Below are positions 3,633 to 62,855 of a stretch of 64,000 nt of DNA, piece after piece. The DNA comes from Gammaproteobacteria bacterium (lineage in GTDB: Bacteria; Pseudomonadota; Gammaproteobacteria; S012-40), in the NCBI GenBank assembly GCA_015487785.1, contig WFPC01000041.1:31592-95591 (forward strand), given 5' to 3'. Each line of letters starts with the position of its first letter. The stretch's first letter is position 1. A model generated the notes under the pieces. The model was not told the origin of the DNA. It saw nothing but the letters and a program-made list of their open reading frames with translations, and did not search any database. A program made the translations under genes and the position numbers.

Positions 3633-5314
3633 TCCTCTTTCTTGCGCTGAGCCTGGTGATCTTGTTCCTGTGGGAGGCCTGGCAGGAAAAGCAGGCGCCG
3701 CAACAGGATGTTGTGGCCCAGCAGACAATGGCCCAGCCGGAGTTGCCCGGTGAAGTGGCCGTTGCCCCGGCGCCGGCCGAAGTCCCCGCCGATTCCCGTG
3801 ATCTGCCCGAGGCGGCACCGGCCGAGCCGGTGGTACCGGCAGCGGAGAAGGAGCGCAAGGCGGTGAAAAAAGCCGCGCTCGGCAGCAAACAGCGCATTCG
3901 CGTGGTGACCGATGTGCTGGACGTGGATATCGACACTCTGGGCGGCGATCTGCGCCGGGCCTACCTGGAAGAGTTTCCGGTCAGTCCCGACAAGCCGGAC
4001 GAGGCCTATCCGTTGATGGACGATCGCCTGCCCCAGCTTTTCATCGCCCAGTCGGGCTTGTTGGCCAATGGTCCGGCGCCGGATCACTATGCGGTGTATC
4101 GGGCGGAGAAGACGGAATATGTTCTGCCGCCCGGCCAGGATGAACTCAAGGTGCCCCTGACCTGGACCAGTCCCGAGGGGATTACGGTTACCAAGATCTA
4201 TACTTTCCGTCGCGGAGATTATTTGATTCGGCTGGATCACCAGGTCTCCAACCAGTCCCAGCAAGAGTGGAACGGGCGTCTGTATCGCCAGTTCCAGCGC
4301 ACCGAATACGACGAAGTAGGCAAGTCCCGCTTGTTGTACACCTTCACTGGTGGAGCAGTGTCCACTCCCAGCAAGCCCTATGAGAAGATTCCTTTCGAGG
4401 ACATGGCCGATTGGCGACCCGAGCAGAGTTATGTGAAAGGTGGCTGGGTGGCCATGTTGCAGCATTATTTCGTGGCAGCCTGGATTGCCGGCAAGGACGA
4501 GGTAAACCATTTCTATACCCGTTCGGTCAACAACGAGCGTTATATTCTCGGCATGACTGGCAAGGAAGTGAGTGTTGCCCCCGGGGAGAATTATGATTTT
4601 GTGGCCGAACTCTATGTAGGTCCCAAGGATCAGGACAGGCTGGCGCAGATCGAGCCCAATCTGCGTCTCACGGTGGACTACGGCATGCTGAGCTTCATTG
4701 CCCAGCCGCTGTTCTGGTTGTTGCAGACCATCCACGCTTTCGTGGGCAATTGGGGTTGGGCCATCGTGATCCTGACCTTCCTGATCAAGCTGGCCTTCTA
4801 TCCCTTGTCGGCGGCCAGTTACCGTTCCATGGCCAACATGCGCAAGCTGGCGCCCAAGTTCCAGGCCATTCGTGAACGTTATGGCGACGATCGCCAGCGC
4901 ATGACCCAGGCCACCATGGAGCTGTACAAGAAGGAAAAGATCAACCCCATGAGCGGTTGCTGGCCCATGCTGGTGCAGATCCCGGTGTTCATCGCTCTCT
5001 ACTGGGTGTTGCTCGAGAGCGTGGAATTGCGCCAGGCTGAATTCATTCTGTGGATCAAGGATTTGTCGGCCAAGGACCCGTATTATGTACTGCCCCTGTT
5101 GATGGGCGCGTCCATGTATGTGCAGCAGAAGCTGAGCCACAACCCGTCCATCGATCCCATGCAGCAGAAGATCCTGCAGTTTCTGCCCATTGTCTTCACC
5201 CTGTTCTTCATGCTGTTTCCGGCGGGACTGGTGTTGTACTGGGTGGTCAACAATATCCTTTCCATCCTGCAGCAATGGTATATCACCCGCAAGATCGAAC
5301 AGGCCGGCCGCTGA
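3614..5314 (+). CDS. yidC: Membrane protein insertase YidC
   Basis: The 566-aa product has an N-terminal TM segment, a large periplasmic domain and a C-terminal 5-TM core ([55 protein letters not shown]). It sits downstream of rnpA-yidD. Confidence 0.95.
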
Positions 5315-6678
5315 CGGCGGCCGGTCCTGGGGATGATGGCGACACCATAGCTGCGCAGGCCACGCCCCCGGGACGCGGGGGCGTGGGCATCATCCGGGTA
5401 TCCGGTCCACGGGCCGGTGCCATTGCCCGCGCCGTCACCGGCAAGGAACTTTCTCCACGGCAGGCCGAGTACCTGCCGTTTTTCGATTCTGGCGGCGAGG
5501 TGCTGGATCAGGGCATTGCCCTGTTTTTCGCTGGCCCCCATTCCTTCACCGGTGAGGACGTGCTGGAGTTGCAGGGTCACGGTGGGCCGGTAATCATGGA
5601 CATGCTGCTGCGCCGGGTGCAGGAGCTGGGGGCCCGCATGGCGCGGCCGGGTGAATTTTCCCTGCGAGCCTTTCTCAACGACAAACTGGATCTGGCCCAG
5701 GCCGAGGCCATTGCCGATCTCATCGACAGCAGTACCGAGGCGGCGGCGCGCTCGGCGCTAAAGTCCCTGCGTGGCGAGTTTTCCCGGCGCATAGAGGCTT
5801 TGCTGGAGCAGTTGATCGAATTGCGCGTGTTCGTGGAGTCGGCGATCGATTTTCCCGAAGAGGAAATCGATTTTCTCGCCGATCCCCAGTTGCGCCAGCG
5901 GCTGGATCGATTGGCAAACTCGCTGCAGGACGTGCTGGCCGCCGCCGGTCAGGGTTGCCTGCTCAGGGAAGGCATGAACCTGGTGATCCTGGGACGGCCC
6001 AATGCCGGCAAGTCCAGCCTGCTCAACCGCCTGGCCGGGCGTGACAGCGCCATCGTCACCGCAGTTCCCGGCACCACGCGGGATGTATTGCGCGAGCAGA
6101 TCCAGCTCGACGGCATGCCGGTCAATGTGATCGACACCGCCGGCCTGCGCGACAGCGGTGACGAGGTGGAACGAGAGGGCATGCGCCGGGCCTGGGAGGA
6201 AGTCGGCCGGGCCGATCGTGTGTTGCTGGTATTCGACGACAGCACGGGTTTCGGTACTCAGGAAAAAGCCATTCTGCGACGACTGCCGGCCGGCCTGGAG
6301 GTTACCCTGGTACGCAACAAGATCGATCTCAGCGGTGGTGACAGCCGCTGGCGGCAAACCGACCACGGTCCCAGTATCGGTATCAGCGCCAGGGAGGGCT
6401 TGGGGCTGGATGTGCTGAAGGCGCATCTCAAGCAGGTCATGGGTTACCAGGGCAGTGGCGACAATGTGTTCATGGCGCGAAGACGCCATGTGGAAGCGCT
6501 GGAGCGGGCCCGCGCGGCGGTGGAACGCGGCCGCCGGCAACTGGTCGAACACGGCGCCGGCGAGTTGCTGGCGGAAGAGTTGCGTCAGGCCCAGCAGGCG
6601 CTCAACGAAATCACCGGCGAGTTCGACAACGAAGCCTTGCTGGGGCGTATTTTTGCATCCTTTTGCATCGGGAAATAA
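5275..6678 (+). CDS. mnmE: tRNA modification GTPase MnmE/TrmE (start taken as the ATG at 5275, which overlaps the yidC 3' end by 40 nt)
   Basis: The product contains [23 protein letters not shown]...[16 protein letters not shown], then the G-domain [13 protein letters not shown] / DTAGLR, and the C-terminal tetrapeptide CIGK. It aligns along the E. coli MnmE sequence. Confidence 0.9.
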
Positions 6679-55193: not shown

Positions 55194-55403
55194 GTGATGG
55201 TCGTGTCGCGTACCCTGATCATCATCGGCGCGGTGTTGGTGTTGTTGGGGCTGTTGTGGCCGTGGATCCAGAAACTGGGCCTGGGTCGACTGCCCGGTGA
55301 TATCGTGGTGGAGCGGGAAAACGTGCGTTTCTATTTCCCCATTGTCACCTCCATCATCATCAGCATCGTGCTCACCCTGCTGTTCTGGTTGTTTCGACGC
55401 TGA
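55194..55403 (+). CDS. DUF2905-like small 2-TM membrane protein
   Basis: The 69-aa product has two hydrophobic helices with the LPGDI motif between them. Confidence 0.5.
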   Translation: MMVVSRTLIIIGAVLVLLGLLWPWIQKLGLGRLPGDIVVERENVRFYFPIVTSIIISIVLTLLFWLFRR

Positions 55404-56509
55404 TGCCCGCGCTCGATTACCTGGCCGCGCCCGGTGAGGCGGTGACGCGCATGGATGCCGTGCGGGTTCGTCGACGCGGCGTCGAGCTGGGCTGGGTGGT
55501 GCCGCGGACGCGGGATGTCACCGACCATACCTGTCTGGCCCGGCACTGGGCGGCGGCCCGGCCCATCTACCTGGCGGATTTCGTTACCGCCGAAGTGGCC
55601 GAACATGGCGAGCACATTGCCCAGGCTCTGGCGCTGATGGAGGCGGTGCTGGCCGAGGCGGATCTCGAAGACGTGCTCCATGCCCCTCCCTATGATGCGC
55701 GACTGGCGCCCGATTTCCGCCTGCTGCCGGCCGGTATAGACACCGGTGACGCGCAGGAGATCCTGCGCCTGGACTTCGATGCCTACGCCGGCGAGCGGTT
55801 ACTGGCCGAGGACCTGTGGGTGAAGCTCTCATGGTTGTCCTTTCACCCCGATGACACCTCGCTGCGTTTTCGTTTTTCCTTCGGCATCGAAGGTTATGAG
55901 AACGTGGCCGCCCATTGGGACAAGCAAAAGCTGGCGGCGCGGCTCACCGAGGCGATCTTTCCCGAGTCGGCCATCGTCAGCCGCAACAGCTTTCTACGCG
56001 GATTGCTCACCAGCATCCTGCCCGTGGACGATGTGGCCTATGTGGAACGCATCGTCTATTTCAATGCGCCCAATGGCGGCGCCCAGTTCCACCAGGACGT
56101 GGAACGGGGTCACCTGGGCGTGGTGTTCGCCCAGCTCCACGGCCGCAGTCTGTGGCTGGCCCTGTCGCGGCAGCAATTGCTGCAGGAGTTGGCGGCATTC
56201 CTGCGCACCCCGGCAGGGCATGTCGCCGGGTATCCCCGGCTGCGGGCGCTGGTGGCTGATGCGGAGGGCCTGGCGGCGGCGCTGGAGGCGGGCGACGAGG
56301 TCGTGGAAGAAGTGTTGAACCGCTCGCCGGAATTTTTTGCCCACCTGCTGCGCCAGGGCCACGGCTGGCTGCTGGAACCCGGCGATATCATCCTGCTGCC
56401 CCAGCAGAGTCAGGAACACTGTGCTTGGCACAGCGTGTTCTGCGCCGATGATTTTCCTGGCCATGCCTTGTCCTTCGCCATCCGGGAGCGGCCGGTGGAT
56501 CACCAGTAG
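55403..56509 (+). CDS. Cupin-4/JmjC-like (RoxA/YcfD-like) putative Fe(II)/2OG oxygenase
   Basis: HxD and a distal His are spaced like E. coli YcfD (QFHQDVERGHLGVVFAQLHGRSLWLAL and GDIILLP...H). The ATG overlaps the DUF2905 stop (TGATG). Confidence 0.45.
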   Translation: MPALDYLAAPGEAVTRMDAVRVRRRGVELGWVVPRTRDVTDHTCLARHWAAARPIYLADFVTAEVAEHGEHIAQALALMEAVLAEADLEDVLHAPPYDARLAPDFRLLPAGIDTGDAQEILRLDFDAYAGERLLAEDLWVKLSWLSFHPDDTSLRFRFSFGIEGYENVAAHWDKQKLAARLTEAIFPESAIVSRNSFLRGLLTSILPVDDVAYVERIVYFNAPNGGAQFHQDVERGHLGVVFAQLHGRSLWLALSRQQLLQELAAFLRTPAGHVAGYPRLRALVADAEGLAAALEAGDEVVEEVLNRSPEFFAHLLRQGHGWLLEPGDIILLPQQSQEHCAWHSVFCADDFPGHALSFAIRERPVDHQ

Positions 56510-57399
56510 AGGGTGCCGTCGACCACGAGTTCCACCGGGGTCAGCTCCGATGAACCGATGCCGCCGCTGGTATAAACCGTCACCGTGAGCTGGTCGAAAA
56601 CGAGCCGGCGGTTTTCCTCGTCCACTTCGACATCCTTACATTGGGGGTCGGGTTCGGGGTAACAGGTCAAGACGAAGCCATAGGGGCCCAGTATTTCCAC
56701 CTTGATCAGGTCGCTGAACGAGGCGCCCCGCGTGATGGCCAATTGCGTGCCGGTGCCCTGCGCATTTTCCATCCAGTTGCCAAAACCCGTTGGAGCGAGT
56801 CTTGGGATGAAGTCGAAGGCGTAGTTTTTCCCCACCAGGGTGAAGCTCAGGCGGCCCAGGCCCGCGCCACCGGCGAGAATATCGCGGGTTCGCCGGAAAT
56901 GGATCCGGGCCGTGGTCGCCGGCACCAGCGCACGCCCACCGAGCACGCTGCTGTTCAGGGTATTGAAGCGGTCCTCAAAACTTGCTGGATCGAGTGCAAA
57001 GTTCAGCTCTTGCCCGGCCAGCGCGCTGTGAAGGCTCTGGCTGATGCGGATGCCATTGGAGGGCAGGCCGTCCTCGTCGGGCGTTTGCAGAAAGCGCAGC
57101 AGGTTGGTGACATGGGGGGTGTTTTCATCCACGGCCCCGGGTACCAGGTCCAGTGGCGTGAGGGTGTCGGCGGGGGTGGTTTTGCCCAGTGATACATCGC
57201 CGACGAAGAAGCTGATCTTTTCCCCTTTGCGATAAGCGAATGTACCGTCGGCATCGGTCTTCCCGCTCAGGCTGGCAGTCTCGAAGCGGAGGCCTTCCAC
57301 CGCTGCATCGACGAATTTTCCTGTAAGTACCGCCTCGGTTTGTTCATTGCTCCCTTTCTTGTCCACACAGGCGGCCAGCAGAAGCAGGATGATGGCCAA
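56500..57399 (-). CDS. Lipoprotein of unknown function (299 aa)
   Basis: The product has a lipobox LLAAC and no motif I recognise. Confidence 0.5.
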   Translation of the reverse strand: MAIILLLLAACVDKKGSNEQTEAVLTGKFVDAAVEGLRFETASLSGKTDADGTFAYRKGEKISFFVGDVSLGKTTPADTLTPLDLVPGAVDENTPHVTNLLRFLQTPDEDGLPSNGIRISQSLHSALAGQELNFALDPASFEDRFNTLNSSVLGGRALVPATTARIHFRRTRDILAGGAGLGRLSFTLVGKNYAFDFIPRLAPTGFGNWMENAQGTGTQLAITRGASFSDLIKVEILGPYGFVLTCYPEPDPQCKDVEVDEENRRLVFDQLTVTVYTSGGIGSSELTPVELVVDGTLYW

Positions 57400-57435: not shown

Positions 57436-57479
57436 ATAATTGCCTAATACCCCCATTATAATTGCCTAATACCCCCATT
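57436..57479. repeat. Perfect 22-bp tandem direct repeat x2 (ataattgcctaatacccccatt), with a partial third copy ataa
   Basis: Read directly from the sequence. It lies in the AT-rich gap between the AAA+SPOR gene stop and the lipoprotein gene start. Confidence 0.85.
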
Positions 57480-57513
57480 ATAAAAGAGATAAACTTGCTT
57501 TTCGGCAGCCAGG

Positions 57514-58947
57514 TCAGAGGTTTTTTTGGATTTCCCCCAGCGAGCGTATCCAGGGCTTGAGTTTTTGCAGCTCGGCCGGCAGCTTGCGGATGGCGGCCGT
57601 AGCTTCGGCGCGGCTGGGATAGAGGCCGTAGACCAGGGAATACCACGGCCTGCCCTTGCGTTGGGTGCGGAAATAGGCCGCCTTGTCACCCAGCTTGTGA
57701 CGCGCGATGAAGGCGAGGATGTTGGCTTCCCGGCCGCTGGCCACCAGTTGCAGGGTGAAGGCCTTGGGGTCCTGGCGGGCCAGCCAGGCCGCGTCCTTGA
57801 TGCCGGCCGGCCGGGCCTCGGCTGCTGGCGGCGGGGCGGGTTTGGACCTCGCCGCCGGCGGTTTTGCGGGTGCCGGGGAGGGAGCCGGCTCCGTGGTGCG
57901 CGCTTGCTTCGCTTCGCGTGGAGCCGCTTGCGCAGCCGGTGGGCGCTCGGATGGTGCCGTGGCGGGCACTTCGCTGTCCTTTGCCGGTGCGCGGACCGGT
58001 TCGGGGGGGCGGATGCTCACTGCGGCCCGGGTCGGCGGGGTCTTGGTTGCCGCATCGGTATTGGATTCGGGCGGCAGGGTCAGGGTCTGGATGCGCTGGG
58101 CATCGTCTTCGTCTTGTTCCTGCGGTGTCTGCTGGGGGCCGAACAACAGGAAGCCGGCGATGGAGATCAACAGGGCCAGGATGATCAGCTTGAAACCTCC
58201 GGCTTGAGGCCGGGGGCGTTCGCCGTTGTTTCCCCCCTGCCGGAGGATGCGGTTGGCCTGGTTGTTGATGCGGGGGATATAGCCCTTGCTGTGCTGGTAG
58301 ATTTCGCGCAAGACCTTGCCCGTGAAGGGCTTGGCATCTTGCTTCATGTGGCGCAGGATGTGGTGTACGTATTCGGCGGTATCGGCCTCGGAGAGGGGTT
58401 CCAGGCTCAGCATGATCAGGGCCTGGTCTTCGTCGTCGCCGGGGTCCAGGGCCTGGTTGACTTCGGGGCTGAGCTGGCGACCGAACAGCACCACGCGCAA
58501 TTCGCCGCCACTGGCCTGGCGCAGCCGGGTGATGAATTGCAGTACCTCCCCGGCCATCTGGTCGCTGTTGTCCACCACCAGAAGGGGAATGGCGCCCCCT
58601 TGTCTGAGGGCGTCGATCGCGCCGAGGAGTTGTTCGGCCGAGGTGATGTTGTCGAGCTGCCAGGCCTGTTGCAGTTGCCTGAGCAGTTGCTCGGCGCTGC
58701 GGCAGAAATGGGCGTCGACAATGGCCACCCGCCAGTTGGGTTTGCGGGTCTTGATGAAGCGTTGCTTGAGCAGGGAGGTCTTGCCGGTGCCGGGTTCACC
58801 ACTGATGAACAGGGTCAGGCGGGTGAACTCGATCAGGTGGGCCAGTTTTTTCAGCAGTTCATCGCGGGCGGCATCAGCGAAGAAGGCCATGTCGGAGATG
58901 TTGTTGCGAAACAGCGAGGTTTTTGGGACGGTGCGGGTGCTTGCCAT
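57514..58947 (-). CDS. ExeA/MshM-like AAA ATPase with Pro/Ala-rich linker and C-terminal SPOR domain (DamX-position protein)
   Basis: Start is taken at MASTRTV. The product has Walker A ISGEPGTGKTSLL, a low-complexity P/A/E-rich linker and a C-terminal SPOR-like domain (FTLQLVASGREANILAFIAR...PWYSLVYGLYPSRAEATAAIRKLP). Confidence 0.75.
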   Translation of the reverse strand: MASTRTVPKTSLFRNNISDMAFFADAARDELLKKLAHLIEFTRLTLFISGEPGTGKTSLLKQRFIKTRKPNWRVAIVDAHFCRSAEQLLRQLQQAWQLDNITSAEQLLGAIDALRQGGAIPLLVVDNSDQMAGEVLQFITRLRQASGGELRVVLFGRQLSPEVNQALDPGDDEDQALIMLSLEPLSEADTAEYVHHILRHMKQDAKPFTGKVLREIYQHSKGYIPRINNQANRILRQGGNNGERPRPQAGGFKLIILALLISIAGFLLFGPQQTPQEQDEDDAQRIQTLTLPPESNTDAATKTPPTRAAVSIRPPEPVRAPAKDSEVPATAPSERPPAAQAAPREAKQARTTEPAPSPAPAKPPAARSKPAPPPAAEARPAGIKDAAWLARQDPKAFTLQLVASGREANILAFIARHKLGDKAAYFRTQRKGRPWYSLVYGLYPSRAEATAAIRKLPAELQKLKPWIRSLGEIQKNL

Positions 58948-58949
58948 GC

Positions 58950-59201
58950 TCAGCTTCCTGTTTGGCCCTGGACGAAGACCACCTGGTAACCGCGCCGAGC
59001 CTGCTGGTCGCGGGTTTGCTGCAGGGCTTGCTGGGCGGCGTCCAGGTCGTCGTAGTGTTCGTGCTTGACCCGCCCGGCGGAGCCCACCTGGCCCCATTCC
59101 TTGACCAGGATCCAGCCACTGATGAGGTCGCGTTCCAGGCAGATCTGGTAGAAGCGAGGCGCCTGATCCGGCAGGGGTGGGGTTTGCATGTAGATGCGCA
59201 T
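58950..59201 (-). CDS. Stand-alone WGR-domain protein (83 aa)
   Basis: The product contains RFYQICLERDLISGWILVKEWGQVGSAGRVKHEHYDDLDAAQQALQQTRDQQARRGY, which matches the recalled WGR consensus. It is tightly packed between dgt and the AAA+SPOR gene. Confidence 0.6.
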   Translation of the reverse strand: MRIYMQTPPLPDQAPRFYQICLERDLISGWILVKEWGQVGSAGRVKHEHYDDLDAAQQALQQTRDQQARRGYQVVFVQGQTGS

Positions 59202-59206
59202 GGCGG

Positions 59207-60358
59207 TCAGGTGAGTCGCAGGGGTTCGAATAAACGTTGGTGTTCGGTGATGGCGTAGCGGTCGGTCATGCCGGCGATGTAGTCGGAAACGATACGTGCC
59301 CGGCCGGCCTCGCCTTGCTGTCGCTCGGCCCGGCGGGCACGTTCGGCGTGCTCTCGCGGCAACAGCCTGATATCGTCCATGAAGGCGTTGAACAGATCCC
59401 GGATGATGCGCTTGGCCTTGTTGCTCATGCGGTAGACCCGGTAGTGAGAATACAGGTTTTCCCGCAGGAAGCGCTTGAGCTGCTGGTTGCCCTGGGCCAC
59501 CTGCTCGCTGAATCCGATGAGCATGTGCTTTTGTTGGCGCACCTGTTCGATGCTCGTGGGGGCACAGTCCTGTAGCCGGCGGCGCGAGGTTTCGATGAGG
59601 TCGCACACCAGTTGGTTGATCATGCGGCGGACGATCTCGTGCACCGCGCGGCGTTCGCCCAGCCTGGGGTATTGCCCGCGCACGGCTTGGTGGTGCTGGC
59701 GGAACAGTTCCAGATCTTCCAGTTGTTCGATGTGAATGAGCCGGGCGCGAATACCATCGTCGATGTCGTGGTTGTTGTAGGCGATCTCGTCGGCCAGGTT
59801 GGCCAGTTGTGCCTCCAGGCTGGGCTGCTGGTGGTCGAGGAAGCGCCGGCCCAGCTCGCCCAGTTGGCGGGCGTGGCGTGGCGAGCAGTGTTTGAGGATG
59901 CCCTCGCGGGTCTCGAAGGTGAGGTTGAGGCCCTCGAAGTCGGCGTATTTCTCTTCTATGGTGTCCACCACGCGCAGGGATTGCAAGTTGTGCTCAAAAC
60001 CGCCGTAGTCCTTCATGCACTGGTTGAGGGCATCCTGGCCGGCATGGCCGAAGGGGGTGTGGCCGAGGTCGTGGGCCAGGGCGATGGCCTCGGTGAGGTC
60101 TTCGTTGAGTCGCAGGGCGCGGGCGATGGAGCGACCGATCTGGGCCACTTCGATGGAGTGGGTCAGGCGGGTGCGGAACAGGTCGCCTTCGTGGTTGACG
60201 AAGACCTGGGTCTTGTATTCCAGCCGCCGGAAGGCGGTGCTGTGCACGATGCGGTCACGGTCGCGCTGGTATTCGCTGCGGTAGCGGGGCGGCGGTTCGG
60301 CGTGACGCCGGCCGCGGGATCGATCTTCGTGGGCGGCATAGGGCGCCAGTTGCTGCAT
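59207..60358 (-). CDS. dgt: dGTP triphosphohydrolase-like HD-domain protein
   Basis: Start is at MQQLAPY, overlapping the aroB stop (ATGA). HD motifs [13 protein letters not shown] and [12 protein letters not shown] are present. Confidence 0.85.
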
Positions 60359-61461
60359 CAGAAGGCCAGGCTCCGCTCGGTGATCGCGTGGTGGGCGTCG
60401 AGGGCGGCGCGCAGATCCTGTGGCCGGTAGTCGCTGGTGACGACCGCTTCGCCGATGCGCTTGAGCAGCACCAGGCGGATCTTGCCACCCTGGTTTTTCT
60501 TGTCGCGTGCCATCAGCTCGATAAATCGCTCGGTGCTGAGGCTGGCCGGGGCGCGGGTGGGCAGGCCGGCCTTGCCAATGAGGTTTTCGATCCGGTGCAG
60601 TTCGTCGTCGCCGATCCAGCCCAGGCGCTTGGACATTTCCGCCGCGATGATCATGCCGGTGGCCACCGCCTCGCCATGCAGCCATTGGCCGTAACCCATG
60701 CCGGTTTCTATGGCATGGCCGAAAGTGTGGCCGAGATTGAGCAGGGCACGCTGACCCGCCTCGCGTTCGTCGGCGGCCACGATGGCGGCCTTGTTGCGGC
60801 AGGAGCGCTCGATGGCATAGGCCAGCTTGTCGGGCTCGCGATCCAGCAGGGCTTGCATGTTCTCTTCCAGCCAGTCGCAGAACTCGGCGTCGCCCAGCAG
60901 ACCGTATTTGATGACCTCGGCCAGCCCGGCACTGAGTTCGCGATCGTCCAGGGTGTTGAGGGTGTCGGTATCAGCGATCACGCACCTGGGCTGGTGGAAG
61001 GCGCCGATCATGTTTTTGCCCAGTGGATGGTTGACCCCGGTCTTGCCGCCCACCGAGGAGTCCACCTGGGCCAGCAGGGTGGTGGGAATCTGGATGAAAT
61101 CCACCCCGCGCTGGTAGGTGGCCGCGGCGAAACCGGCCATGTCACCCACCACGCCACCGCCCAGGGCGATCAGGGTGCAACTGCGGTCGAAGTTCTCGCC
61201 GAGCAGTTGGTCGTAGATCAGGTTTAGGGTCTCCAGGTTCTTGTAGCGCTCGCCATCGGGCAGAAGGGTTTCGGCACAATGCAGACCCTGGAGCGCGGTG
61301 CGCACGCTCTCCATATAGAGAGGGGCGACGGTTTCGTTGCTCACGATCATCACTTGTCGTCCCTTGATATGAGGGCGGATCAGTTCGGGCCGGCGCAGCA
61401 GGCCCTGGCCGACATGGATGGGGTAACTGCGTTCGCCGAGTTCGACGGTGAGGGTTTTCAT
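60358..61461 (-). CDS. aroB: 3-dehydroquinate synthase
   Basis: The 367-aa product has full-length AroB motifs ([44 protein letters not shown]). Confidence 0.95.
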
Positions 61462-61552
61462 GCTGTTTTCTGCTCGTTGGGACGGCCCGGGCGGCCGTAA
61501 ACCGGATTTGCGTTCAGGATAAGAGCAAAGCCCGGTGGCTGCAAGTTGCGGC

Positions 61553-62098
61553 TCAGGAGGTGCCGGGCCGGAGCAGGTTCCGGTTCAGCAGCTTGAGGGT
61601 TTCTCGTACTGTGTGGCCGCCGGTTTCCACCACCTGGTCGGCGATTTCGCGGTACAAAGGATCGCGTTCGCCAAGGATGTCGAGCAGTTTCTGGCGGGGG
61701 TTGTCGGTTTGCAGCAAGGGGCGGTTGCGGTCTCGGGCGGTGCGTTCCAGCAATTTGTCGATGTCGGCGCGCAGATAGACCACGTGGCCCCGCGTGGCCA
61801 GGTGGCGACGGTTCTCCGGACGCAGCACGGCGCCACCACCGGTGGCCAGCACCACCCGGTCGAGTTGGCTCAGTTCGTCGATCATGGCGGCCTCGCGTTG
61901 GCGAAAACCCTCTTCGCCCTCCAGTTCGAAGATCAACGGAATGGAGGCGCCGGTGCGTTGTTCGATTTCCTTGTCGGAATCGAGAAAACGGTAGCCCAGT
62001 GCCTGGGCCAGTTGCTGGCCGAGGGTGGTCTTGCCCACGCCCATGGGGCCGATCAAAAAGATCCGCCGGGGCGGTCTGGCGGGAAAGCGGGCTGACAT
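61553..62098 (-). CDS. aroK: Shikimate kinase
   Basis: Start is at MSARFP. The product has the P-loop GPMGVGKTT. Confidence 0.9.
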
Positions 62099-62460
62099 CA
62101 GGCACCTGCCGATGCTTGCGGGTCGGCGTAGAGGCGGTCGCTCTTGGCGGCCATGACGAAGTCGTTGACGTGCAGTCCCTTGATCTTGTGCGACCACCAG
62201 CGCAGGTTCACCCTTCCCCACTCCACCAGGATGGCTGGGTGGTGGAATTCGGCTTCCGCCAGCTCGCCGATGCGGTTGGCAAAGGCCAGGGCATCGACGA
62301 AGTTGTCGAATCTATAGGTGCGGCTGAGCTGGTCGATGCCGTCCACAGTCTGGATCTGCCAGTGTGGAATCTGGGGCAACAGGGTTTCGATCTCCTGTGG
62401 CGTGACGCGCGGGGCGTCGCGCCGGCAGGCTTCACAATGTTGTTCGTGCAGGGGTTTCAT
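62098..62460 (-). CDS. Pterin-4a-carbinolamine dehydratase
   Basis: The product has the PCD signature [29 protein letters not shown]. Confidence 0.85.
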
Positions 62461-62855
62461 GAGGTCTCCTGGTTTTTCTTGCCGATCAGTTCGATGGGAT
62501 AGCCGTCGGGATCTTCCACGAAGGCGATCAGGGTGGTGCCGGCATTCATGGGGCCCGGTTCGCGCAGGATTTTCCCGCCGCGCCGGCGAATGTCCGCGGC
62601 GGCCCGGTGGACGTCGTCCACCTCGATGGCGAGATGGCCAAAGCCGGTGCCCAGCTCATAATGATCCACGCCCCAGTTGTAGGTCAGCTCGATCACCGTG
62701 TGCTCGGCCTCGTCGCCATAGCCCACGAAGGCCAGGGTGAACTCGCCCTCGGGATAGTCCTTGCGGCGCAGCAGTCTCATGCCCAGCACCTCGGTATAGA
62801 AGCGGATGGAGCGGTCCAGGTCGCCCACCCGCAACATGGTGTGCAGCAATCGCAT
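62457..62855 (-). CDS. gloA: Lactoylglutathione lyase (glyoxalase I)
   Basis: The product [30 protein letters not shown]... is nearly collinear with E. coli GloA. Confidence 0.9.

Follow-up and report, generated by a model that had tools for sequence, protein, structure and literature searches.

A conserved, probable gammaproteobacterial aroK-aroB operon that carries dgt, a WGR mini-protein gene and a DamX-like gene

The genes that follow aroB in this gammaproteobacterial window (the whole 64-kb stretch of DNA analysed) raise the question of whether they form a distinct functional system or belong to an ordinary housekeeping operon. The second reading is preferred, at a probability of roughly 85%: a polycistronic housekeeping operon that is a lineage-specific variant of the widespread proteobacterial (pilMNOPQ)-aroK-aroB-damX-like-(gltBD) neighbourhood, with dgt and a WGR mini-protein gene as extras between aroB and the DamX-like gene.

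Gene content and junctions

The features of the locus, from its upstream end, are:

62457-62855: glyoxalase gene, upstream of phhB
62098-62460, minus strand: phhB, pterin-4a-carbinolamine dehydratase (Pfam Pterin_4a, E 4e-29; NCBIfam NF002016, 170 bits, cutoff 133)
61553-62098, minus strand: aroK, shikimate kinase, 181 aa (Pfam SKI, E 2e-54; NCBIfam NF003456 AroK, 203.6 bits, cutoff 195)
60358-61461, minus strand: aroB, 3-dehydroquinate synthase, 367 aa (TIGR01357, 400 bits, cutoff 305; Pfam DHQ_synthase and DHQS_C)
59207-60358, minus strand: dgt, TT1383-type dNTP/dGTP triphosphohydrolase, 383 aa (Pfam HD and HD_assoc; NF002326 equivalog, 635 bits, cutoff 390)
58950-59201, minus strand: stand-alone WGR-fold mini-protein, 83 aa (Pfam WGR, 43.2 bits, cutoff 22)
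57514-58947, minus strand: DamX-like bitopic protein (AAA_22, transmembrane segment, Pro/Ala linker, SPOR), 477 aa (Pfam AAA_22, 50 bits; SPOR, 54.6 bits)
57440-57483, minus strand: two tandem copies of the 22-nt repeat TTATAATGGGGGTATTAGGCAA, in the spacer that follows the operon

The coordinates and tight packing of the five genes from aroK to the AAA-SPOR gene, as given in a preliminary description of this DNA, are borne out by the open reading frames and translations, and independent gene calls on identical contigs place the same boundaries. The Pfam and NCBIfam matches likewise uphold the gene identities and domain architectures proposed there. A 91-nt gap separates aroK from aroB. The aroB/dgt junction, previously given as an ATGA overlap, instead reads TGATG, with the dgt ATG and the aroB TGA sharing one base. 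The gaps reported downstream agree with the sequence: the WGR start lies 5 nt after the dgt stop, with no obvious Shine-Dalgarno sequence ahead of it, and the AAA-SPOR start, preceded by AGGAAG, lies 2 nt after the WGR stop. This spacing is compatible with translational coupling, and aroK-aroB-dgt-WGR-AAA/SPOR are presumably co-transcribed. The 91-nt gap weighs against co-transcription, as do the pattern scans, in which no promoter or terminator was informative.

The transcription unit probably extends upstream of aroK to include phhB, since one nucleotide is shared by the phhB stop and the aroK start, and the glyoxalase gene; the phhB gene call is also found on the identical contig L001. At the other end, TTATAATGGGGGTATTAGGCAA is present in one, two or three copies among otherwise identical contigs, and the pattern scan marks positions 57484-57455 (minus strand) as promoter-like. 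These repeats probably lie where the next gene has its promoter, and mark the 3' boundary of the operon.

Conservation of the gene order

The WGR mini-protein is found in 264 GTDB species, and gene order was surveyed at the 80 best WGR loci (Thiohalophilus, Thiohalobacter, Thiogranum, 'Ca. Tenderia' and others). In 77 of these dgt is immediately upstream of the WGR gene, and aroB and aroK precede dgt wherever the contig reaches that far. An AAA(-SPOR) gene directly follows WGR in about 49 of the 80, whereas in 27 it is gltB that directly follows, after about 185-520 nt. The backbone most often takes the form pilQ–aroK–aroB–dgt–WGR–(AAA-SPOR)–gltB; 57 loci have pilQ on the upstream side and 64 have gltB on the downstream side. 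The most divergent members of the WGR family that were checked (46-53% identity) share this context. Neither pilQ nor gltB occurs anywhere in the 64-kb window, and the five-gene block is intact in this organism though both flanks depart from the usual backbone.

The matrices of pairwise identity for aroK, aroB, dgt and WGR are correlated (r = 0.77-0.84), at a level that none of 500 permutations attains. In conservation dgt equals aroB, with mean identities of 0.71 and 0.69, respectively. This tight correlation of divergence indicates vertical co-inheritance. Dozens of species-level genomes thus share the conserved, vertically inherited order aroK-aroB-dgt-WGR(-AAA/SPOR), across a broad lineage of gammaproteobacteria that includes many sulfur-oxidising members.

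Comparison with E. coli places this order in a wider setting. The E. coli order hofMNOPQ-aroK-aroB-damX-dam-rpe-gph-trpS was verified, including the aroK-aroB-damX-dam operon cited in the preliminary description. In both operons aroK and aroB are followed by a gene whose bitopic product combines a Pro-rich linker with a SPOR domain of the DamX type, and genes of aromatic biosynthesis are mixed with those of DNA metabolism and division. The E. coli secretin cluster hofMNOPQ lies upstream, as a secretin cluster does in most relatives of the window locus. However, the window operon lacks dam, and its SPOR gene is separated from aroB by dgt and the WGR gene. In P. aeruginosa, gltB presumably follows PA5037, comparable to its downstream position in the relatives surveyed, and no dgt or WGR gene is known at that locus. 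The neighbourhood of PA5037 is pilMNOPQ/aroKB, the same as that of the relatives (PMC6321873, PMC9712689).

The arrangement had been proposed as an unusual, system-like unit, with the proviso that a conserved ancestral order containing a housekeeping dGTPase would leave nothing system-like. That state of affairs is now found: the order is conserved and dgt scores as the housekeeping equivalog. In addition, an AAA-SPOR protein beside aroB is already known. A system-like unit is therefore not supported.

Dgt and the WGR mini-protein

The closest solved relative of Dgt is TT1383 of Thermus thermophilus (PDB 2DQB), to which it aligns over its full length (E 1.8e-94) with the H..HD..D motifs conserved. 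With these features and its NF002326 score, it resembles in sequence the dNTP triphosphohydrolases of the TT1383 and Caulobacter FssC type; the linkage to aroB is specific to the lineage of the window. By homology, Dgt would be an HD-domain enzyme that trims dNTP pools; its relatives form hexamers, are activated by dNTPs and, in Caulobacter, influence the G1-S transition.

A nucleotide-depletion antiphage role had also been suggested for dgt. Homologues of dGTPase can defend by depleting dGTP (Tal et al. preprint, 10.1101/2021.04.26.441389), and the Sp-dGTPase family described there shares the HD-domain dGTPase superfamily with the window enzyme. The PADLOC dGTPase HMM matches dgt at 361 bits, so automated defence finders may flag it, and the AAA domain of its neighbour has weak, sub-threshold similarity to STAND-type NTPase models. 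Nevertheless, dgt reaches just 277 bits against NCBIfam antiphage_dGTPase (NF041026, cutoff 400) while passing the housekeeping equivalog. Its core position is fixed in about 77 of 80 species and it has diverged together with aroK and aroB, the reverse of the pattern of defence genes, which are patchily distributed and carried on islands; distant dGTPase homologues are likewise not associated with defence islands (10.1101/2021.04.26.441389). Among the neighbours, WGR has no match to PADLOC models and AAA-SPOR only marginal ones (E 1e-3 or weaker). No WGR of the same family was found on viral contigs, and no plasmid or phage homologue of dgt reaches 60% identity. Those nearest in the plasmid collection belong to Azospirillum megareplicons (about 1-2 Mb); core genes surround the one that was inspected. 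The antiphage role of dgt is thus unsupported, and it is very improbable that dgt and WGR, with or without the AAA protein, form an antiphage module inside the aro operon.

Within the preferred housekeeping operon, the WGR gene is the one undescribed member. Its homologues fall into more than 1100 clusters at 90% identity. Their lengths are all close to 82-86 aa, the N-terminal MRIYMQ is invariant and residues of the core are conserved; judged by this conservation the ORF is a real gene. An AF2 model (pLDDT 91.7) has the same fold as the WGR domains of PARP2 and PARP3 by Foldseek (TM 0.73-0.77, also to 2RA8). At E 1e-3 or better the WGR profile is matched by more than 1300 clusters at 50% identity, and most of the 150 matches listed are short stand-alone proteins. 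Stand-alone bacterial WGR proteins (PF05406; 'predicted DNA-binding WGR domain protein' at JGI) have the Pfam match in common with the window protein. The window subfamily differs from other WGR proteins in being tied to the aroB-dgt/gltB locus and in not being basic: its charge is near neutral (median pI 6.9) and the Arg of the W-G-R motif is usually missing, so that DNA binding is not assured. The protein consists of a single WGR fold and most likely serves as a small accessory factor that binds nucleic acid or protein.

No description of the dgt/WGR pairing was found in the searchable literature, in agreement with the preliminary description. The new element is a modest one: a WGR mini-protein family, conserved but uncharacterised, that goes with the aroB-dgt locus. 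As a point against the plain housekeeping reading, its strongly conserved place next to dgt could mean that the two are tied in function, in a way for which simple operon inertia would not account. A stronger proposal is that WGR is a dedicated partner of its neighbours, and that dgt, WGR and AAA/SPOR form a module through which division responds to the state of DNA and dNTPs. In one version WGR would sense DNA ends or nicks and tether or regulate the dNTPase; in another it would signal to the AAA domain on the cytoplasmic side of the DamX-like protein. Consistent with this are the adjacency to dgt in 77 of 80 species, with gaps typically of 0-40 nt where AAA-SPOR is present (median 36 nt), the 18 loci listed with dist=-4, where the longest ORF for AAA-SPOR starts 4 nt ahead of the WGR stop, and the fold shared with PARP2/3 domains that bind DNA breaks. 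Relatives of Dgt also influence cell-cycle progression (PMC11071499), and one alphaproteobacterial replicon carries a dgt-argS-SPOR cluster. However, WGR is kept without an adjacent dgt, for example in L022 (aroB-WGR), L064 (IS30-like transposase, then WGR-gltB) and P0205 (aroB-WGR-hemE read-through), and in the 27 loci without AAA-SPOR it persists 100-400 nt from both neighbours. No dgt-WGR or WGR-AAA fusion occurs among the best 150 relatives, and the near-neutral charge and missing Arg also argue against the proposal, which is considered unlikely.

The AAA-SPOR protein

An AAA+SPOR protein does occupy the DamX position, as previously described. Its ExeA-like P-loop domain (AAA_22, residues 42-157; Walker A GEPGTGKT, Walker B LLVVDN) is followed by a single hydrophobic segment at 251-269 by hydropathy, a linker (270-393) of 23% Ala and 21% Pro, and a C-terminal DamX-type SPOR domain (394-477; Pfam match 394-468). 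The last 163 residues are 34% identical to E. coli DamX (E 1e-18), and the DamX SPOR structure 2LFV is matched at E 4.5e-12. The score against the NF008153 DamX model is 72 bits (cutoff 256), and the cytoplasmic part is the AAA_22 P-loop rather than the DamX N-terminus. A counterpart of this architecture beside aroB has already been described: P. aeruginosa PA5037 (PA14_66580), an ExeA-like, SPOR-bearing DamX homologue (PMC6321873, PMC9712689), to which the window protein is likened by described architecture. It would be a bitopic inner-membrane protein, with the P-loop domain on the cytoplasmic side as in PA5037 and the periplasmic SPOR domain predicted to bind denuded septal peptidoglycan. 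AroK and AroB would supply two steps of the shikimate pathway in the same operon.

That the protein mainly serves type IV pilus biogenesis, helping near the PilQ secretin in the manner of ExeA, and not cell division, is suggested by the reduced twitching and fewer pili of PA5037/PA14_66580 mutants (PMC6321873), by pilQ upstream of aroK in the majority of related loci, and by the ExeA type of the AAA_22 domain. A main role in pilus biogenesis is nonetheless rather doubtful. PilQ multimerisation is unaffected in the Pseudomonas mutant (PMC6321873), the periplasmic part is a DamX-type SPOR domain and not the PF01471 peptidoglycan-binding domain of ExeA, and the window organism retains the gene with no pilQ in the window. 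Pilus and cell-division roles are not mutually exclusive.

Gene order and inheritance of the operon

The operon consists of five genes on the minus strand between positions 57514 and 62098. Open reading frames and domain matches bear out the gene identities given in the preliminary description. With the gene that precedes it, the operon is laid out as follows.

62098–62460, minus strand: phhB, sharing 1 nt with the start of aroK
61553–62098, minus strand: aroK, 181 aa (Pfam SKI, NCBIfam AroK)
60358–61461, minus strand: aroB, 367 aa (TIGR01357 AroB)
59207–60358, minus strand: dgt, a dGTPase-family HD gene, 383 aa (HD and HD_assoc)
58950–59201, minus strand: gene for the WGR protein, 83 aa (PF05406)
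57514–58947, minus strand: gene for the AAA+SPOR protein, 477 aa (AAA_22 and SPOR)

A gap of 91 nt separates aroK from aroB, aroB and dgt overlap by 1 nt, and spacers of 5 and 2 nt follow dgt and the WGR gene, respectively. The two short spacers match those first described, but the junction of aroB and dgt, previously given as an ATGA overlap, reads TGATG. These boundaries agree in independent gene calls from 18 contigs that carry an identical WGR protein and that place the source in an uncultured MAG lineage of gammaproteobacteria. Because phhB overlaps aroK, and a glyoxalase gene in turn overlaps phhB by 4 nt, the transcription unit probably starts farther upstream than aroK. A pattern scan found no enrichment of terminator-like sites (6, versus 7.2 in shuffled sequence) and none 3' of the operon, and the 3' spacer shows no significant structure (folding z = 0.42). 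The GC content is 0.62–0.69 inside the operon and 0.55–0.68 in the flanks, and the composition profile has no discrete island boundary.

The arrangement is well conserved among relatives. When each GTDB species was represented by a single genome and scanned with a 16-sequence alignment of the WGR family, the mini-protein was found in 264 species. The best 80 of these loci come from Thiohalophilus, Thiohalobacter, Thiogranum, Ca. Tenderia and Thiohalomonadaceae, and include many MAGs labelled Chromatiales or Ectothiorhodospiraceae. The WGR gene is directly preceded by dgt in 77 of the 80, with aroB and aroK before it where the contig is long enough. Directly downstream lies either an AAA(+SPOR) gene (about 49 of the 80), whose longest open reading frame starts 4 nt before the WGR stop in at least 18 loci, or gltB (27 of the 80), after ~185–520 nt. 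Farther out, 57 of the best 80 loci have pilQ upstream and 64 have gltB downstream. These counts indicate an ancestral backbone of pilQ-aroK-aroB-dgt-WGR-(AAA/SPOR)-gltB, and the most divergent WGR members looked up (46–53% identity) occur in the same context. Neither pilQ nor gltB is present within the 64 kb of the window. That the five-gene block is intact despite these odd flanks supports its being a single operon.

The E. coli order used for comparison, hofMNOPQ-aroK-aroB-damX-dam-rpe-gph-trpS, was confirmed. The survey downstream of aroB upholds the placement of an AAA-SPOR gene in the DamX position, but not the suggestion that the arrangement is unusual, as it is conserved across the lineage. 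Gene order and sequence comparison identify the locus as a variant, spread across the lineage, of the known aroK-aroB-damX-like operon, and they document a form of this super-operon in which dgt and a WGR gene are present.

For aroK, aroB, dgt and WGR, the matrices of pairwise identity are correlated (r = 0.77–0.84 over 58 loci and the window); 500 Mantel-style permutations gave no value as high. Mean identity is 0.71 for dgt and 0.69 for aroB, so that dgt is as conserved as aroB. Such a pattern is typical of core genes that diverge together with their host, and not of a mobile defence gene.

One exchange of neighbours was seen in the most divergent WGR-bearing locus (L091, 6374–10840), where genes for an HlyD-family adaptor and an ACR_tran (RND) pump replace AAA-SPOR between WGR and gltB.

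Family assignment of the dgt product

The dgt product contains the Pfam domains PF01966 and PF13286 (HD and HD_assoc). It passes the housekeeping equivalog NF002326 with 635.4 bits (cutoff 390), and falls under the curated cutoffs of both the antiphage_dGTPase model NF041026 (277.4 bits, cutoff 400) and the related NF003701 (238 bits, cutoff 383). The nearest solved structure is that of the Thermus thermophilus dNTP triphosphohydrolase TT1383 (2DQB), to which it aligns over its full length (E 1.8e-94). Its H...HD...D metal-binding motifs, RLTHS, HDLGH and HDIDD, are the same as those of 2DQB in this alignment. E. coli Dgt matches around the HD region only. Enzymes of the TT1383 type hydrolyse all dNTPs under activation by dNTPs, and Caulobacter FssC governs dNTP pools and G1-S progression (PMC11071499).

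The preliminary description had proposed that these genes form an unusual, system-like unit, possibly acting against phage by nucleotide depletion. The one point in favour of an antiphage dGTPase is a strong match to the PADLOC dGTPase HMM (361 bits, judged against no curated cutoff). Against it, dgt counts as housekeeping by the curated NCBIfam cutoffs, and its position between aroB and WGR is fixed in a core context. For these reasons the PADLOC match was dismissed as evidence of defence, and the nucleotide-depletion reading is not supported. Nor do the neighbours or the distribution of homologues support it. PADLOC models have no match for WGR and only marginal ones for AAA-SPOR (E 1e-3 or weaker). 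Viral contigs yield no WGR protein of the same subfamily and a single distant relative (33% identity over residues 16–72). Plasmid and phage homologues of dgt are all below 60% identity, and the best from plasmids lie on Azospirillum replicons of ~1–2 Mb, where the one inspected (H1) sits amid core genes. Tal et al. likewise note of distant dGTPase homologues that they do not lie together with defence genes and that their role may be a housekeeping one (10.1101/2021.04.26.441389).

The idea of a system-like unit is not supported; the arrangement is conserved and ancestral, and its dgt scores as the housekeeping type. By the NCBIfam cutoffs and its conserved position, the gene in the window is best described as a core, vertically inherited operon member of the housekeeping family. 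The main value of this case is as a caution: a strong PADLOC match can fall on a core gene of the dGTPase family, and context and curated cutoffs should therefore be checked before nucleotide-depletion defence is called.

The WGR mini-protein and its neighbours

The WGR protein matches PF05406 with 43.2 bits (gathering threshold 22). Its AF2 model, built with 39 homologues, has a pLDDT of 91.7 and consists of five strands and one helix; among PDB structures, Foldseek ranks the WGR domains of PARP3, PARP2 and 2RA8, a Bacteroides protein, highest (TM 0.73–0.77). The family is tight, with members of ~82–86 aa and an invariant MRIYMQ start. The Trp-Gly-Arg motif itself is incomplete. W36-G37 is conserved, but the place of the Arg is taken by Q in the window and varies (Q, H, Y, F or N) among family members. 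Six residues farther on, a GR pair is nearly invariant. With a median pI of 6.9 and a net charge of 0, the family is close to neutral, and DNA binding is therefore not asserted here.

A profile search matched 1102 clusters (clustered at 90% identity), and 1311 clusters in a library of 1.84 billion proteins match the WGR profile at E 1e-3 or better. Most of the best 150 of the latter are short stand-alone WGR proteins, and the few long ones are multi-WGR repeats or the read-through call P0205, a library protein that spans aroB, WGR and hemE. The single viral relative, at 2026–2199 of IMG/VR contig UViG_3300013296_000060, belongs to a different subfamily. Literature searches found no paper tying WGR to dGTPase, and nothing relevant on a stand-alone bacterial WGR domain or on aroK, aroB and dgt together. 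The novelty that remains at this locus is a conserved, uncharacterised and locus-bound family of WGR mini-proteins, flagged here in 264 GTDB species and more than 1100 clusters at 90% identity.

The consistent position of the WGR gene could indicate that its product is a specific partner of the adjacent proteins. It might sense DNA nicks or ends, or serve as an adaptor, and in doing so control the TT1383-type dNTPase, send a signal to the DamX-like protein through the cytoplasmic AAA domain of the latter, or do both; DNA and dNTP status would in this way be linked to septation. A partnership would fit the near-universal adjacency to dgt among the best 80 loci, the short dgt-WGR gaps in loci of the AAA-SPOR type (median 36 nt) and the AAA-SPOR starts that overlap WGR by 4 nt. 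However, the WGR gene also persists where one or another of these neighbours is missing. In one locus (L022, 4182–6255) dgt is absent between aroB and WGR, and the order is pilQ-aroK-aroB-WGR. In another (L064), an IS30-like transposase gene (HTH_38 and rve; 4598–5758, minus strand) lies directly upstream of WGR and replaces aroK-aroB-dgt, while WGR-gltB is kept. P0205 (396 aa) joins the AroB C-terminus, a WGR domain and the HemE N-terminus, and probably reflects read-through or a frameshift in the gene call at an aroB-WGR-hemE locus of a different lineage. A further 27 loci keep WGR without AAA-SPOR, at 100–400 nt from either neighbour. In betaproteobacteria, aroB-dgt may often occur with no WGR gene, which would also speak against a partner role. 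A Rosetta-stone test on the best 150 relatives turned up no protein in which WGR is fused to Dgt or to an AAA protein, and both the near-neutral charge and the usual lack of the motif Arg also count against such a role. As evidence stands on both sides, a dedicated partnership is graded as possible but unproven, and we consider it unlikely.

Were it true, a large clade of sulfur-oxidising gammaproteobacteria would couple DNA and dNTP status to septation, and a PARP-type WGR module would be used stand-alone in bacteria. The fixed place of the gene beside those for a dNTPase and a DamX-like protein offers a testable handle on stand-alone bacterial WGR domains.

In the alphaproteobacterium Azospirillum ramasamyi (replicon NZ_CP029830.1, 88107–92174), too, a TT1383-type dgt is found two genes away from one for a SPOR protein, in a core, division-related neighbourhood that reads erpA / dgt-argS-'SPOR domain-containing protein'-nagZ-...-scpA. 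This dgt is the closest plasmid-collection homologue of the one in the window (53% identity).

The AAA-SPOR protein and the downstream spacer

As first described, the protein in the DamX position differs from DamX in architecture; its C-terminus is DamX-like and its N-terminal half is AAA_22. The latter domain occupies residues 42–157 (50.2 bits, cutoff 27) and has an intact Walker A motif (GEPGTGKT). The Walker B motif is LLVVDN (residues 122–127, hhhhDN). The DN ending is shared with four other proteins, most orthologues (loci L011–L089) have hhhhDD, and none has the DE of ExeA-type ATPases. ATP hydrolysis by this domain may, from these motifs, be weak or lost. In one orthologue (L028) the AAA_22 domain has no Walker A. 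A single hydrophobic segment (251–269) is followed by a 124-aa linker of 23% Ala and 21% Pro and by the SPOR domain (PF05036, 54.6 bits). Over 163 aa the C-terminus and E. coli DamX are 34% identical (E 1e-18), and the C-terminus also matches the DamX SPOR structure 2LFV (E 4.5e-12). The DamX equivalog NF008153 is matched over residues 298–477 only, and at 72.2 bits its cutoff of 256 is not reached because the N-terminal half differs.

The protein shares with E. coli DamX the C-terminal SPOR domain, a predicted bitopic topology and a place downstream of aroB, although in the window two genes of the same operon intervene between aroB and the SPOR gene. Unlike ExeA/GspA, it has SPOR in place of a PF01471-type periplasmic peptidoglycan-binding domain, and no pilQ-like gene that might supply an ExeB/secretin partner is present in the 64-kb window. 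The closest parallel by description is PA5037 of P. aeruginosa, which lies by aroB and the pil cluster and combines an ExeA-like ATPase with SPOR. The protein (PA5037/PA14_66580) carries an ExeA-like annotation and is encoded next to the pil cluster, and its loss reduces twitching and the number of pili but leaves PilQ multimers unaffected (PMC6321873). Another paper gives it as the DamX homologue with a SPOR domain in P. aeruginosa (PMC9712689). The AAA+SPOR architecture beside aroB is thus already known. A literature search on a SPOR domain together with aroB and AAA found no paper.

Three features lie 3' of the AAA-SPOR stop (57514).

57440–57483, minus strand: tandem repeat of the 22-nt unit TTATAATGGGGGTATTAGGCAA, which contains TATAAT, between the AAA-SPOR stop and the start of the 299-aa ORF (57399)
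56500–57399, minus strand: 299-aa ORF with a lipobox-like N-terminus (MAIILLLLAAC...) and faint SslE/AcfD N-terminal similarity
55403–56509, plus strand: 368-aa ORF, convergent with the 299-aa ORF

The repeat varies in copy number between identical flanks, with two copies in the window and in loci L003 and L005, one in L001, L004 and L009, and three in L002. It probably sits in the promoter region of the downstream gene. The 299-aa and 368-aa ORFs are conserved but match no significant Pfam family, and both occur in all same-species contigs.
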